NCBI GenBank assembly: GCA_021777765.1
Contig: JAJYDF010000001.1
Location: 13,151-77,150 of the forward strand
Origin: Pseudomonadota bacterium
GTDB lineage: Bacteria; Pseudomonadota; Gammaproteobacteria; DASZBR01
DNA length: 64,000 nucleotides
Direction of reading: 5' to 3'
This document shows, piece by piece, positions 30,001 to 42,000 of this stretch. Made by a program: the position numbers. How positions within the stretch are numbered: position 1 is the stretch's first letter; every line of letters starts with the position of its first letter.

Positions 30001-33000
30001 AAATTATGAGACCTAAAGCAGCTCCCAAGAAAAGTAAATTATGATATAATGAAAAATTATTCGAACATAGATAATAGGCGTATCAATGAGTATTGAATCA
30101 ATTTTATTAAAACATTTAGCAAGATCAGCAATTTTTATTAATAGCCACCCGGTGAAATTTAGAAACTGGAATAATTCAAAAGAACGTGAAGAAGGATATA
30201 GCAATAGTAGTTTTTTTGAGACCATAAAAAAGGGCGCTATTGTGGGTGTGTTATCACCGAATATAAAGGTATCCGCAAAAACACCTTATTTTCAATATAA
30301 GATAAAGGAAAAAATGTCTGCAGCTGCAGCGGTTAAAGATTTAATTAAAATGAGTGCAACCATTTTTAACCGCAGGCACTGGAATTACATTAACTGTTTC
30401 AATCCTCACTCATTAATTAAAATGAGTGCAACAATACAGATTGCAGTCATATTTGCGCTTCATGTGGAGTTTCAATCCTCACTCATTAATTAAAATGAGT
30501 GCAACATTTTGTGCAGTCTTTACAGCTACGTTTGAAACTGTTTCAATCCTCACTCATTAATTAAAATGAGTGCAACCTTTACAGCCATCAGCTACAATGT
30601 TGGAACTGTCTTGTTTCAATCCTCACTCATTAATTAAAATGAGTGCAACTTCTGTAAGAGAACTGCTCCGCCATAAAGACATTAGTTTCAATCCTCACTC
30701 ATTAATTAAAATGAGTGCAACCTTCATCTACGGCCATCACTGAAATAACTCTTGGTACGTTTCAATCCTCACTCATTAATTAAAATGAGTGCAACGACAC
30801 TTCCCCTTATACACTACTACTACACTGTTACTAGTTTCAATCCTCACTCATTAATTAAAATGAGTGCAACCAGATTAAGATCATTTTTGCAAGAACAATT
30901 AATGGAGTTTCAATCCTCACTCATTAATTAAAATGAGTGCAACAATCAATTGTATCCTATTAAAACGGGTACGGATATGTTTCAATCCTCACTCATTAAT
31001 TAAAATGAGTGCAACATGCTAATGTAACAAGTACATTTTCAACGTCAGTTGTTTCAATCCTCACTCATTAATTAAAATGAGTGCAACCAAACAACGTAAT
31101 TTGCTGGTAAATCACCACCAGTGTTTCAATCCTCACTCATTAATTAAAATGAGTGCAACAACTGATGTACCATACCAATTTGCTTTTTCAGGAACGTTTC
31201 AATCCTCACTCATTAATTAAAATGAGTGCAACTTAAACGATGAAAAATTGTGTTATACATTATTAATGTTTCAATCCTCACTCATTAATTAAAATGAGTG
31301 CAACCCTTTACATCACTTGCTAAAGTTTTACTATGAGAGTTTCAATCCTCACTCATTAATTAAAATGAGTGCAACCGCAAAAAACGCTTTAAAAGCTAAA
31401 TTGGTTAACGGTTTCAATCCTCACTCATTAATTAAAATGAGTGCAACCCCTGCGGTTATTTTGACTTATAATTAATAGGAAAAAATATATCAATTTCGCG
31501 AACCTTAACATTTTTAAGCTGGGTATATCATGTATTATTAAGCTCATTATTATTTTTGCCTATTTTTATGGGGTTTTGTTATGGCGCGAACCTGCCGTGA
31601 TTTTGTCTTTGCTTTATGTTCGCGCTTCATTATATTACAAGTGGTTTATTAAAATCAGTTGATCTAAAGTTGCCGAATTCTTTTACGCTGCAATCAACCG
31701 CGTCTGATACTCGATAAATTCGTAAATTATCTTCCGCTTCGTTAATCTCATTTAATAATTTATTTTCTAATTCTTCATATTGCATTAAATTTACTTGGCA
31801 TTCAAATACTGATTTCTGAACGCGTTGTCCAACACTTTCGCAAATTTTTGCGACATGACGTAATCTTGTGCGCCCAGCTTTTGTTTCAGTTGAAACATCA
31901 TATGTTACTATTATTAACATAATTATCTCGTTAAAAAAGGCAAATAACCTTCCATATCGCCGCGTAATGTACGCGCAATTAATCTAGCTTGTAACATAGG
32001 TACAAGGCCAAGACACATTTTGCTTTCAGTTAAAGGATGTGTAATCTCTTCTTGTTTTCGTTCTTGATAGGCAATGACAACTTTTTTACTACTACCATCA
32101 GCTAAATAAACCGCACCACCTTCATATTCTTTAAAATCTTTAATTCCAATTTGTTTACGATTAATTAATGTCAATGCAAGTCTATCAGCTAATGGGGCGC
32201 GAAATTCTTCTAATAAATCTAGTGACATCGCTGAACGTCCAGGGCGCACAGAATGTAAATAACCAAGTTGTGAATCTAGGCCAACACTTTCAATGGCTGT
32301 TCGACAATCGTTCATCACTAACGCATATAAAAACGATAAGAGGGCATTAAATCGATCGCGTGGTGGTCTTCGGGTTCTGCCATCCATAGTAAAATGCTCT
32401 CGTAAATCAACGGTGACTAATAAAGGTAAACAAGAAAAATACATTTTAGCGGCATCACCTTCGATACCACGTAAAACATCTAAATCAGAAGCTTTAGGTA
32501 AACTCACTATGGAGCTTGCTAAATAATTGACACCCTTCGTGATTAAATCTTTATCCCGCTGATTGTCTGATTCGCGAGCACCACGCATTAAAACTTGACG
32601 TGAATTTTTTAATTTTCCTGCAATAATTGCTCTTGCTATATTAAGTGTAAATATTGGATCGGAAGCATTTTGAAATTGTGCAAGTCGCAATAAAATATTT
32701 CCGTTAACAGGGCCTTCTAATCGCGCTTTAAAATGTCCATGTCTATCAAGTAAAACAAGGCTAATACCATCGCTTGCACATCGTTGCATTAATGCAGGTG
32801 ATATCATTACATCTCCAAAGCAAACAATAGAACTTATATGATGTAATGGCACTTGCATTTTCTTTTCGTGATTGATCATCACTGCTGCTGTATCATTTTC
32901 TAAATGAAGATAAGCATTGGGCGTTGTAATATATAATGTATTTAATATTTGTTGCATTTGTCCTCCGTTACATACAAGACTTTACGCAATTTTGTTAATT

Positions 33001-39000: not shown

Positions 39001-42000
39001 AGTGATCAACTTTATTTTGAGAATTTTCAATATGCGCATCCGCATTATAGCCACTTGCATTACGAATATAATTTTGAAATTCAACGGAATATTTTCCAAG
39101 GTCATGCCACAATCCTGCAAGAGCAGCCCAATCCCCATTGCCAAAAGTGTCTGCAAATTTCTTGGATAATTTTGCAACGGCATTTAAATGATCTATCAGC
39201 AAATGCTCATGCCAATGTCCTTTTTCATCCTTATAAACATGCGCAATAGAATTATGAATATCCATATATTTCCTGAAATACAAAACGTTTTATTTGTTTA
39301 TTTTTTTGATATTTTGAAATAAAGATTAGTAGGGAATCTGTGAATGGTCAAAAGAGCTGTAATTAAGCCAAGATGAATTATTTTTTACTCATTAGCAATC
39401 TATCCAACTGAGTGCTAAAGTGTTATATAATATTTTTTTTGATAAATCCGATTAATTACTAACATTCAGTTTGAAGTCAATGATAGACAAAGACAAAACG
39501 CTTAATGAGCGAGCACAACATCTATTTAAATGTCTTGTAGAACGTTATATTCGTGACGGTCAGCCGGTTGGCTCGCGCACGCTCTCTGATGAAATGGGAT
39601 TATGTTTAAGTTCGGCAACAATACGAAATGTATTGGCTGATTTAGAAGAGCAGGGCTATCTACGTTCATTGCATACTTCATCGGGGCGTGTTCCCACTGC
39701 ACGCGGTTACCGATTTTTTGTGGATTCTTTGCTCACGGTGCAACCATTACAAGAAGAAATGGTGCAACAGTTTCAGCAGCAATTAGATCCTGATCTAAAT
39801 GTACCCAGTTTGGTTAATTCAGCGTCGACTTTATTGTCGCGTATTACGCATTTGGCGGGATTAGTTACCGTCCCAAGACATGAGCGAGTCATCGTGCGGC
39901 ATATGGAATTTTTACCTTTATCTGGTAATCGGGTGTTAGTCATTTTGGTGCTCAATGAGCGGGAAGTGCAAAATCGAATTATTTATACGGATCGTTCCTA
40001 TTCGCAAAGTGAATTACAGCAGGCAGCCAATTATTTAAATTCTAATTTTGCGGGGTTGGATTTAACGCACGCGAGACAAAAAATATTATCCAGTATGGCC
40101 GCTGATAGAGACTCAGTGAATGCATTTATGCAGACAGCACTGGATGTTGCGAGCAAAGGTCTTAATATCAATGCAACGAGCAATCCTGATGACTATGTAA
40201 TGGCTGGACAAGCTAATTTAATTGGTATGGCTGAAGAATCTGGCGTAGAAAGTTTACGATCATTGTTTGAGGCTTTTACTCAAAAACAAGTTATTCTGGG
40301 ATTATTGGATCACTGTTTAAATGCGGAAGGTGTGCAATTATATATCGGTGAAGAATCAGGTTATCAGGCGTTGGATGATTGTAGTTTAGTAACTGCACCT
40401 TACTCTGTGTCGGGTGAAGTGGTTGGTGTATTGGCAGTGATTGGTCCGACACGTATGGCGTATGACAAAGTTATTCCCGTTGTAGATTTAACGGCAAAAT
40501 TATTGAGTGCGGCCTTGAATCGATCGTAAGAATCCCCATCTTATTTTCCTTCCACCCTTCGGTGCGATAGTGCTGAAGACGGATTAGGGGGTATTAAAAA
40601 GATTTACGCAATTATTTAAATCGTCCTCGTCCGCCTTCGGCACCTTCTCCCGCAAGCGGGAGAAGGAAAATCAACTATTTTTTTAGCGGAGTACAAGCAT
40701 GACAAAGAAGCAAGATTGGTTATATGAAGACGACGATATGATGGGAGAGCCTGAAAAAGAAGCTGAACAAGACTCTTCACAAAAAGACGCGCAAAAAAAA
40801 GAGACTAAAGCAGCGAGTGAAGAACACAAAGAATTAGATTTAACAAGCCGACAAGATTTAGAAGAAGAATTAAATAAAATGGAAAAGTTGGTGGATGAAT
40901 ATAAAGAAAAATATTTACATGCAAAAGCTGAAACTGACACAGTACGTCGTCGCTCCTATGAACAGATTGATAAAGAAAAAAAATATGCTGTGAGTAAATT
41001 ACTTGAAGAATTAATACCAATTCTTGATAGCTTTACTCAAAGCGTTGCCACCGTACAAGATACCGATCATGAAATGGTTACCAGCATGCGTGAAGGTATG
41101 GTGCTGACTCTGCAAATGTTATTGAAAGCACTGGCAAAATTTGGCGTTAAAGAAATTAATCCTGGTGACAATGAATTATTTAATCCCACCTTTCATGAAG
41201 TGATGATGGCACAAGAAAATAATAGTGTTGCGCCAAATACCATTTTATCGGTATTACAAAAAGGGTATCAGCTCCATGATCGAGTTATTCGTCCTGCACG
41301 TGTTATTGTTGCAAGAGCGACGAATTAATTAATTCAAATGCGGAGTTGAAAAAATCTGGCTAGTCCCCATGTTGATATTAGGTAATTATTTATTCGTTAT
41401 CTTCATCCCAATAGAAAACAAGAAAAGTTGTTGAGTTATTTGGGGAGAAACTAATAAATAGTTAAATGTAATTAAATTGTAAACGTTATTTATAGATTTT
41501 TTTGGAGAAAGCAAACAATGGCTCAAATAATTGGTATAGACCTTGGAACAACGAATTCCTGTGTTGCCGTAATGGAAGGTGACAAAGTTAAAGTAATTGA
41601 AAACAGCGAAGGTATGCGTACTACGCCTTCGATTGTTGCCTATACGGAAGATGGTGAAATTTTGTGTGGACAAGCTGCAAAACGTCAAGCAGTGACAAAT
41701 CCTAAACGCACCCTTTTTGCGATTAAACGATTAATTGGCCGTAAGTTCACAGATGATGTTGTGCAAAAAGATATTAAAATGGTGCCTTATGAAATTATGT
41801 CTGCTGATAACGGCGATGCTTGGGTGAGAGTGGGCAATGAAAAATTAGCGCCACCACAAATTTCTGCACAAGTATTAATTAAGATGAAAAAAACTGCAGA
41901 AGATTATTTGGGGCACCCTGTTACTGAAGCAGTTATTACCGTTCCTGCTTATTTCAATGATTCACAACGTCAAGCTACTAAAGACGCAGGACGTATCGCT

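Follow-up and report, generated by a model that had tools for sequence, protein, structure and literature searches.

What kind of CRISPR-Cas system (clusters of regularly interspaced short palindromic repeats and their associated genes) is encoded in the 64,000-nucleotide stretch of DNA analysed here from an uncultured member of the gammaproteobacterial lineage DASZBR01 (assembly GCA_021777765.1, contig JAJYDF010000001.1, positions 13,151 to 77,150; referred to as the window), and is it still intact? A preliminary description had proposed a complete, apparently intact and probably functional seven-gene type I-C cas operon at 31630-39283, possibly with an internal promoter between cas3 and cas5. 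Our analysis makes it very likely that the locus encodes a type I-C (Dvulg) CRISPR-Cas system for adaptive immunity, located on the chromosome and genetically intact, in an uncultured gammaproteobacterium with a low content of guanine plus cytosine (GC). The reading frames and the gap on which this assignment bears are listed below in operon order.

37061..39265, minus strand: cas3, 734 amino acids from the most likely start, ATG 39265 (the predicted reading frame, 37061-39283, starts at a TTG); HD nuclease and superfamily 2 helicase, fused
36899..37060, minus strand: intergenic gap between cas3 and cas5c, 162 bp, 26% GC
36236..36898, minus strand: cas5c, 220 amino acids; pre-crRNA (CRISPR RNA) endoribonuclease and Cascade subunit of I-C systems
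34458..36239, minus strand: cas8c/csd1, 593 amino acids from the likely start, ATG 36239 (the predicted reading frame, 34458-36263, starts at a TTG); large subunit and I-C signature
34458..34835, minus strand: cas11c (very probable), 125 amino acids; small subunit, in frame from an internal ATG of cas8c (Cas8c residue 469)
33586..34461, minus strand: cas7c/csd2, 291 amino acids; Cascade backbone subunit
32942..33583, minus strand: cas4, 213 amino acids; RecB-like nuclease with a four-cysteine cluster, prespacer processing
31923..32957, minus strand: cas1, 344 amino acids; integrase, I-C subfamily
31630..31920, minus strand: cas2, 96 amino acids

The seven conventional genes were found on the minus strand where the preliminary description had placed them, and they form a co-oriented operon (31630-39265) in the order cas3, cas5c, cas8c, cas7c, cas4, cas1 and cas2, which is canonical for type I-C; the CRISPR array is adjacent on the same strand, 182 bp past cas2. 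The tight junctions described earlier were also recovered, with 4-nt overlaps at both cas5c/cas8c and cas8c/cas7, a 16-nt overlap at cas4/cas1, and 2 nt separating cas7 from cas4 and cas1 from cas2. The earlier extent of the operon holds at its cas2 end, while its 5' end shifts with the start of cas3, which is likelier to be the ATG at 39265 than the TTG at 39283.

The subtype was assessed with NCBIfam models and their curated cut-offs, PADLOC models, Pfam and alignments to solved structures (PDB). Four I-C-specific NCBIfam models scored above their cut-offs, namely those for Cas8c/Csd1 (TIGR01863, 523 bits against 219, profile positions 1-587 of 588), Cas5c (TIGR01876, 199 against 85), Cas7/Csd2 (TIGR02589, 393 against 182) and Cas1c (TIGR03640, 481 against 385). 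Cas4 (TIGR00372, 127 bits, cut-off 65) and Cas2 (TIGR01573, 62 bits, cut-off 24.5; Pfam CRISPR_Cas2, 81 bits) were recognised by their family models. Cas3 was matched by the NCBIfam cas3_HD (101 bits) and cas3_core (118 bits) models and by the PADLOC Cas3c model, the last with 753 bits over residues 5-723, and Cas8c was additionally matched by Pfam Cas_Csd1 (537 bits) and four PADLOC Cas8c models. The Pfam assignments agree with the NCBIfam typing throughout, and the E-values of the profile matches, 1e-17 to 1e-161, mean that chance is not an issue. Every I-C protein checked against the PDB aligned full-length to a solved I-C counterpart (Cas3; Cascade 7kha, 8dej and 8g9s; Cas4-Cas1 8d3l). No cas6 was present among the minus-strand open reading frames (ORFs) of at least 60 amino acids in 29886-39382, all of which were accounted for and none of which was Cas6-like. 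Typing with hidden Markov models thus upholds the I-C assignment, and the hallmark motifs reported for Cas3, Cas5c, Cas7 and Cas4 are all present in the translations.

Within the Cascade genes, the active sites reported for Cas5c differ among orthologues, and the translation here carries the motif MRTYCLEVWGDFACFTRPE. Cas5c aligned over its full length to PDB entries 3kg4, 3vzi, 7kha_A and 8g9t_N (E about 1e-58 to 1e-62), Cas7 to 8g9s_B (E 6e-115) and 7kha_B (E 2e-107), and Cas8c to 8g9u_H (E 1e-109) and 8dej_I (E 6e-86). The ATG at 36239 is the likely true start of cas8c, being the one used in public gene calls, and an identical 593-residue protein is present in public data; a scan of species-representative genomes returned no close relatives of Cas8c.

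The preliminary description counted seven genes, which is correct for the conventional set and overlooks a reading frame embedded in cas8c. The internal ATG at 34835 is preceded by a Shine-Dalgarno sequence, aaaaggag, 8 nt upstream, and Cas8c residues 472-586 match Cas11 chains that are separate in the PDB (8g9s_H, E 4e-32; 7kha_K, E 4e-21). The methionine and the adjoining GAAAAGGAG, which encodes EKE, are kept in four relatives (L005, L086, L087 and L089) whose Cas8c proteins are 48-71% identical. Judged from these features, the locus very probably encodes eight proteins, Cas11c included. Internal translation of Cas11c within cas8c has been published for the Desulfovibrio vulgaris I-C system (PMC7684278; bioRxiv 10.1101/2020.04.18.045682), and the retention of the internal start across the clade agrees with that work on the I-C small subunit.

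The adaptation proteins were compared with the solved Cas4-Cas1-Cas2 complex. Cas4 aligned to 8d3l_I (E 3e-33) with its Cys, D, ExK and QxxxQ/C positions in register; its cysteines, an N-terminal one in YCPRQC and those of CKHCSLHDIC, fall on the cysteine positions of the solved protein. Residues 1-343 of Cas1 aligned to 8d3l_A (E 3e-81), and its motifs LRGIEG and GYLH...LDLLEEFR (E/H/D-E) align with those of that structure. In one I-C relative, L087, a toxin-antitoxin-like DUF433/DUF5615 pair is inserted between cas4 and cas1 (13372-13985).

For cas3, the ATG at 39265 is most likely the start, judging by the gene calls on public copies of the contig, which give 734 residues, and by solved Cas3, to which this shorter form aligns from its residue 6 onwards. 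Numbered on a 740-residue form, the HD domain occupies residues 29-193 and the helicase core 258-590, and the alignments to 8zns and 8g9u reach E 1e-165 to 1e-168. The motifs include LWHDLGK in the HD domain, PTGGGKT as motif I and VILDEAQ (DExQ) as motif II; since the best-aligning solved I-C Cas3 also carries VILDEAQ, DExQ is the I-C norm.

As had been described, cas3 and cas5c are separated by an AT-rich gap, of exactly 162 bp. The internal promoter for the Cascade and adaptation genes that was suggested to lie in it is a different matter, as nothing computed here beyond that AT-richness backs it. The gap contains one weak, 9/12 sigma-70-like match (36966..36937), and promoter-like matches in the surrounding region are rarer than in shuffled sequence (31 against 48.7). 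A strong Shine-Dalgarno sequence for cas5c, AAGGAG, sits in its final bases. No minus-strand terminator was found after cas3, and the gap showed no repeat elsewhere in the window, no similarity to relatives and no mobile element or conserved sequence; its RNA showed no unusual folding (z = -0.34) and no structured RNA. In four relatives the same gap measures 30, 64, 10 and 9 bp. A 29-codon ORF within it was dismissed, as it has no Shine-Dalgarno sequence and is not conserved. An internal promoter is possible; the sequence fits read-through from cas3 just as well.

Downstream of cas2, three features make up the array and its surroundings.

31448..31629, minus strand: leader, 182 bp from the cas2 stop to the first repeat; its function is presumed from position only
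30341..31447, minus strand: CRISPR array, 15 identical 37-nt repeats and 15 spacers, followed by a cut 16th repeat
30013..30343, plus strand: truncated gene, of which the promoter region and the ~86 initial codons are left, joined to the cut 16th repeat

The leader contains one 9/12 promoter-like match (31562..31534). The 37-nt repeat, GTTGCACTCATTTTAATTAATGAGTGAGGATTGAAAC, is identical in all 15 full copies, and the full repeats with their spacers of 34-38 nt span 31447-30361. The predicted fold of the repeat RNA consists of 4 nt, an 8-bp stem with a 6-nt loop, and an 11-nt tail, AGGAUUGAAAC (-9.7 kcal/mol, z = -3.25), which is the I-C layout of a hairpin followed by a conserved 3' tail ending in ATTGAAAC, with a longer hairpin than in model systems. 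By analogy, the tail would become the 11-nt 5' handle, which places the presumed cleavage site at its upstream edge. All 15 repeats align on the minus strand over the full 37-nt model of the Rfam family CRISPR-DR9 (RF01322, a 37-nt repeat family) with 32.3 bits; as this lies below the gathering score of 45, it is a resemblance and not curated membership, and at gathering thresholds Rfam gave no matches anywhere in the window. The repeats of two relatives, L089 and L090, are 35-36 nt long with a period of 70-71 nt and share the same tail, ending in GGATTGAAAC, which indicates that a length of 37 nt is normal for this Cas8c clade. The exact 37-nt repeat was absent from the JGI metagenome contigs.

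Searches for spacer targets were negative. With up to 7 mismatches no self-target was found in the window, blastn of all 15 spacers against phage and plasmid collections returned nothing at E <= 1, the exact 24-26-nt 5' cores of spacers 1, 2, 4, 5, 10 and 12 had no match in IMG/VR, and spacer 1 had none in the JGI metagenomes. As no protospacer was found, no protospacer-adjacent motif (PAM) can be derived. Spacers 10, 12 and 13 (30722-30758, 30577-30612 and 30506-30539) share the short motifs GTAGCTG, GCTGTAAAG and GATGGC[CT]GTA, and might derive from protospacers in related or repetitive regions of a single target.

The array's distal end is a deletion scar. The 16th repeat retains only its first 17-20 nt (30360-30341), where it meets the truncated plus-strand gene. 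A predicted ORF at 30086-30493 (plus strand, 135 amino acids) reads on through the array boundary and is no genuine gene; its first 85 residues share 78% identity with the N-terminus of P0249, a protein of 505 residues. The gene for P0249 is intact on L096, which is a contig of a different sample, and is followed there by darT-darG; the protein has no Pfam domain. DNA homology to positions 61-391 of L096 (85.5%) covers 30013-30343 of the window and ends inside the repeat, with a TTA shared at the junction. Because the homology stops within the repeat, a deletion took away the older part of the array along with the 3' five-sixths of the adjacent gene; it left the cas operon untouched. Lacking a complete repeat downstream, spacer 15 is probably not matured in the normal way. 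The 135-residue ORF matched no family, and the idea that it encodes an anti-CRISPR protein or a regulator was rejected, since it is the N-terminus of the truncated 505-residue gene read through into the array.

The operon itself was indeed found apparently intact, as proposed: there is no frameshift or internal stop, the profiles are covered end to end and the active-site motifs are present. The ratio of nonsynonymous to synonymous substitution rates (dN/dS) was 0.09-0.16 for every cas gene in comparisons with the relatives L005 (Cas proteins 69-82% identical) and L086 (59-68%); with dS near saturation (1.2-2.5) these values are rough, while their direction is clear. The Cas proteins have been under purifying selection over the divergence from both. 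An identical 21.8-kb stretch, flanks included, occurs in the ENA assembly ERZ27236866, two shorter contigs match the locus at 99.9-100%, and the Logan assembly SRR13178630 has the same flanks at 99.99% identity, so that independent assemblies sharing the locus and its flanks show that it is not an assembly chimera. A further sample with this genome is SRR17201898. In the Logan assembly the array is collapsed to one repeat, which was taken as an assembler effect; a polymorphism between samples was considered for the single-repeat array (L002) and rejected, as it joins repeat 1 to repeat 15 between otherwise identical flanks, a short-k assembler effect on a 37-nt repeat.

The system is probably functional, a reasonable but unproven reading of its sequence. 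Following characterised I-C systems, transcription of the array would start from the leader and run the same way as that of the cas genes, and Cas5c would cut each repeat at the 3' base of the 8-bp hairpin, giving a crRNA whose 34-38-nt spacer is flanked by the 11-nt 5' handle and, on its 3' side, by a hairpin handle of 26 nt. Cascade assembled on this crRNA would consist of Cas5c, about seven Cas7, one Cas8c and two Cas11c made from the internal start in cas8c. Cas8c would read the PAM (TTC in the systems studied), an R-loop would form, and the HD-helicase Cas3 would be recruited to nick and then processively degrade the target DNA. New spacers would be integrated by Cas1-Cas2 at the leader-proximal repeat, with Cas4 selecting and trimming PAM-containing prespacers.

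The whole locus is delimited by comparison with its closest relative.

29886..39382, no strand assigned: CRISPR-Cas module, a 9,497-bp presence/absence block in comparison with L091

L091 is the closest relative found (HrcA 89% identical). It shows the same synteny, with the gene for a major facilitator superfamily (MFS) transporter adjacent to hrcA, and 4 nt (9902-9905) in place of the module; by blastn, its positions 7210-9901 correspond to 27222-29885 of the window and 9906-11061 to 39383-40539. In the more distant L086 (HrcA 82%) an I-C operon again lies directly beside hrcA, and in L092, more distant still (HrcA 75%), nadK adjoins hrcA. One flank of the module carries clpB, recN, nadK, a Crp-family regulator gene, csbD and the MFS transporter gene, the other hrcA-grpE-dnaK-dnaJ-greA. 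There is no integrase, transposase or tRNA gene in or beside the module, the window as a whole contains no tRNA genes, and the GC fraction of the module, 0.31-0.36, is the same as that of its surroundings. At the junctions there is an imperfect short direct repeat, GATGAcatcATTATTT just outside on the left (about 29870-29885) and GATGAATTATTT just inside on the right (about 39372-39383), which may be due to chance in AT-rich DNA. No other defence genes were detected nearby, PADLOC on the neighbouring large ORFs giving generic cross-matches of the AAA/ClpB type only.

How firmly can these data be read as an intact and working I-C system? That the locus is of another subtype (I-B, I-G/U or I-E), or a hybrid wrongly typed by its motifs, has a negligible chance of being right. 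Weaker secondary matches to the I-B Cas7/Csh2, I-G Cas3g, Cas4g/Cas1g and I-D Cas1d models do occur, but all fall well under their own cut-offs (Csh2, 103 against 172; Cas3g, 116 against 400), whereas the I-C models are all above theirs, including that of Cas8c, the subtype signature; the absence of cas6 points the same way, and the cut-off comparison thus gave this idea no support. More weight attaches to the possibility that the locus, intact in sequence, is a silent or decaying relic that is unexpressed or unused and is being lost as in the sister lineage. Several observations speak for such a relic and at the same time against a working system: the entire module is missing at the same site in L091 and is hence dispensable, the array has lost its distal end to a deletion, none of the spacers has a detectable protospacer in the collections searched, the array is identical in the only other full-length copy (L001) and so gives no sign of ongoing spacer acquisition, and the promoters are only weak consensus matches; the near-saturated dS also blurs the estimate of selection. 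Missing spacer matches are, however, the norm in uncultured lineages, all eight reading frames are open with their active-site motifs present, the dN/dS values attest to selection on the proteins, and the 15 full repeats are identical, which is usually not the case in decaying arrays. On balance a relic appears quite unlikely, and an intact, probably functional I-C system remains our preferred reading.

The history of the 9.5-kb block is less one-sided. It could have been gained recently by horizontal transfer, as a mobile defence cassette that entered between the MFS gene and hrcA, rather than being an ancestral locus lost in the sister lineage. Such a gain would fit the clean presence/absence pattern with 4 nt at the empty site, the short imperfect direct repeat at both junctions and the fragment of an unrelated gene inside the block, the intact copy of which lies next to darT-darG in another genome. 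Yet the base composition of the block matches its surroundings, it neither contains nor adjoins an integrase, transposase or tRNA gene, the junction repeat is short, AT-rich and possibly fortuitous, and the presence of an I-C operon beside hrcA in L086 favours an old locus with later loss. We regard recent gain as somewhat unlikely; an old locus, later lost in the L091 lineage, would be slightly more parsimonious.

The proximity of hrcA also raises the question of regulation. A CIRCE-like (controlling inverted repeat of chaperone expression) inverted repeat, TTAGCAATC-N9-GAGTGCTAA, is located at 39392-39418 upstream of the divergent hrcA. It lies 9 nt beyond the edge of the module and about 130 nt upstream of where cas3 starts, and is kept in L086 and L091. 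Only one promoter-like site (39406..39377) occurs upstream of cas3, and it overlaps this repeat, with the -35 element (TGGATA, 39406-39401) within CIRCE and the -10 element (AATAAT, 39382-39377) just inside the module. Conceivably, HrcA bound at CIRCE could keep cas3, and perhaps the operon as a whole, silent; heat shock or proteotoxic stress, as phage infection can cause, would lift the repression, and the Cascade and adaptation genes could have a promoter of their own, independent of HrcA, in the long 162-bp gap. We consider this scheme very improbable. The arrangement is not shared by L086, in which CIRCE lies about 700 bp from cas3. The hrcA-cas3 intergenic region of that relative, ~1 kb long, contains ~4 tandem copies of a ~36-bp unit (TTCTTATAATGACCTACCATTCATGTGCTTAGAGTA-like) at 1200-1500, and there is nothing like it in the window.

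Other features of the window concern the host. DnaK is at most 76% identical to Gammaproteobacteria species representatives among the matches listed, and the named HrcA matches, at ~60% identity, belong to Thiotrichales, Competibacterales or unclassified organisms. Chaperone and heat-shock genes are unusually dense, with a CbpA-like DnaJ at 12016-12990, Hsp20 at 13088-13552, ClpB at 19397-21979 and hrcA-grpE-dnaK-dnaJ at 39471-44711. Eukaryote-like proteins are encoded both in the window (a 903-residue U-box protein, 4757-7468, minus strand; an 862-residue ankyrin and Sel1 repeat protein, 14956-17544, plus strand) and in relatives (an RNase III-ankyrin-pentapeptide protein and a RasGAP-domain protein; L091 1-2815, L092 1-324), which hints that the organism lives in association with a host or inside cells. 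At 2253-3389 and 3522-4724, both on the minus strand, lie two paralogous AAA_14/DUF4143 ATPase genes in tandem. Long ORFs of 374-533 amino acids that have no Pfam match at E <= 1e-8 occur at 17660-19261 (scanned at E <= 0.01), 50371-51753, 52075-53418, 54466-57103 and 61443-62630, and such ORFs lie in the part of the window that is lowest in GC (0.28-0.31 around 54-58 kb).

The locus adds one intact I-C system in a deep-branching uncultured gammaproteobacterium, which matters little beyond annotation, and it illustrates cleanly how a CRISPR-Cas module can be present or absent as one 9.5-kb block at a fixed site in the chromosome. Being compact, it could be a candidate for tool development, and nothing suggests properties unlike those of the I-C systems already in use.

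Set beside known systems, the adaptation proteins resemble those of the Cas4-Cas1-Cas2 complex (PDB 8D3L/8D3M/8D3P/8D3Q), to which Cas1 aligned over residues 1-343 and Cas4 over 6-194 with the cysteine ligands and nuclease motifs kept. Between its D and ExK motifs the solved Cas4 carries an insertion of ~13 residues, which the Cas4 studied here lacks. The complex is that of Bacillus halodurans.

The I-C Cascade-Cas3 of Neisseria lactamica (PDB 8G9S-8GAN; bioRxiv 10.1101/2023.08.05.552134) provided the best solved match for Cas7, Cas8c and Cas11 at the E-values given above, and nearly the best for Cas3 (E 6e-165), for which 8zns scored slightly higher. Both systems have the same subunit set and a fused HD-helicase Cas3 with DEAQ as motif II. 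The Cas3 of the present locus is shorter (734 against 771 residues), and the alignment stops at residue 650, which indicates that the C-terminal domain has diverged.

The D. vulgaris I-C Cascade (PDB 7KHA, 8DEJ; PMC7684278; bioRxiv 10.1101/2022.06.15.496202) has the same minimal set of Cas5c, Cas7, Cas8c and Cas11c, and its proteins are less similar in sequence than those of N. lactamica (Cas8c, E 6e-86). Its Cas11c is made from an internal ribosome-binding site in cas8c; a Shine-Dalgarno sequence and an ATG are found here at the equivalent position, and the predicted product, of 125 residues, compares with 124 in the D. vulgaris PDB chain. The D. vulgaris repeat is 32 nt long, whereas the present one has 37 nt and a longer, AT-rich hairpin. 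Measured against these systems, the locus is an ordinary type I-C system that holds nothing surprising to a specialist.

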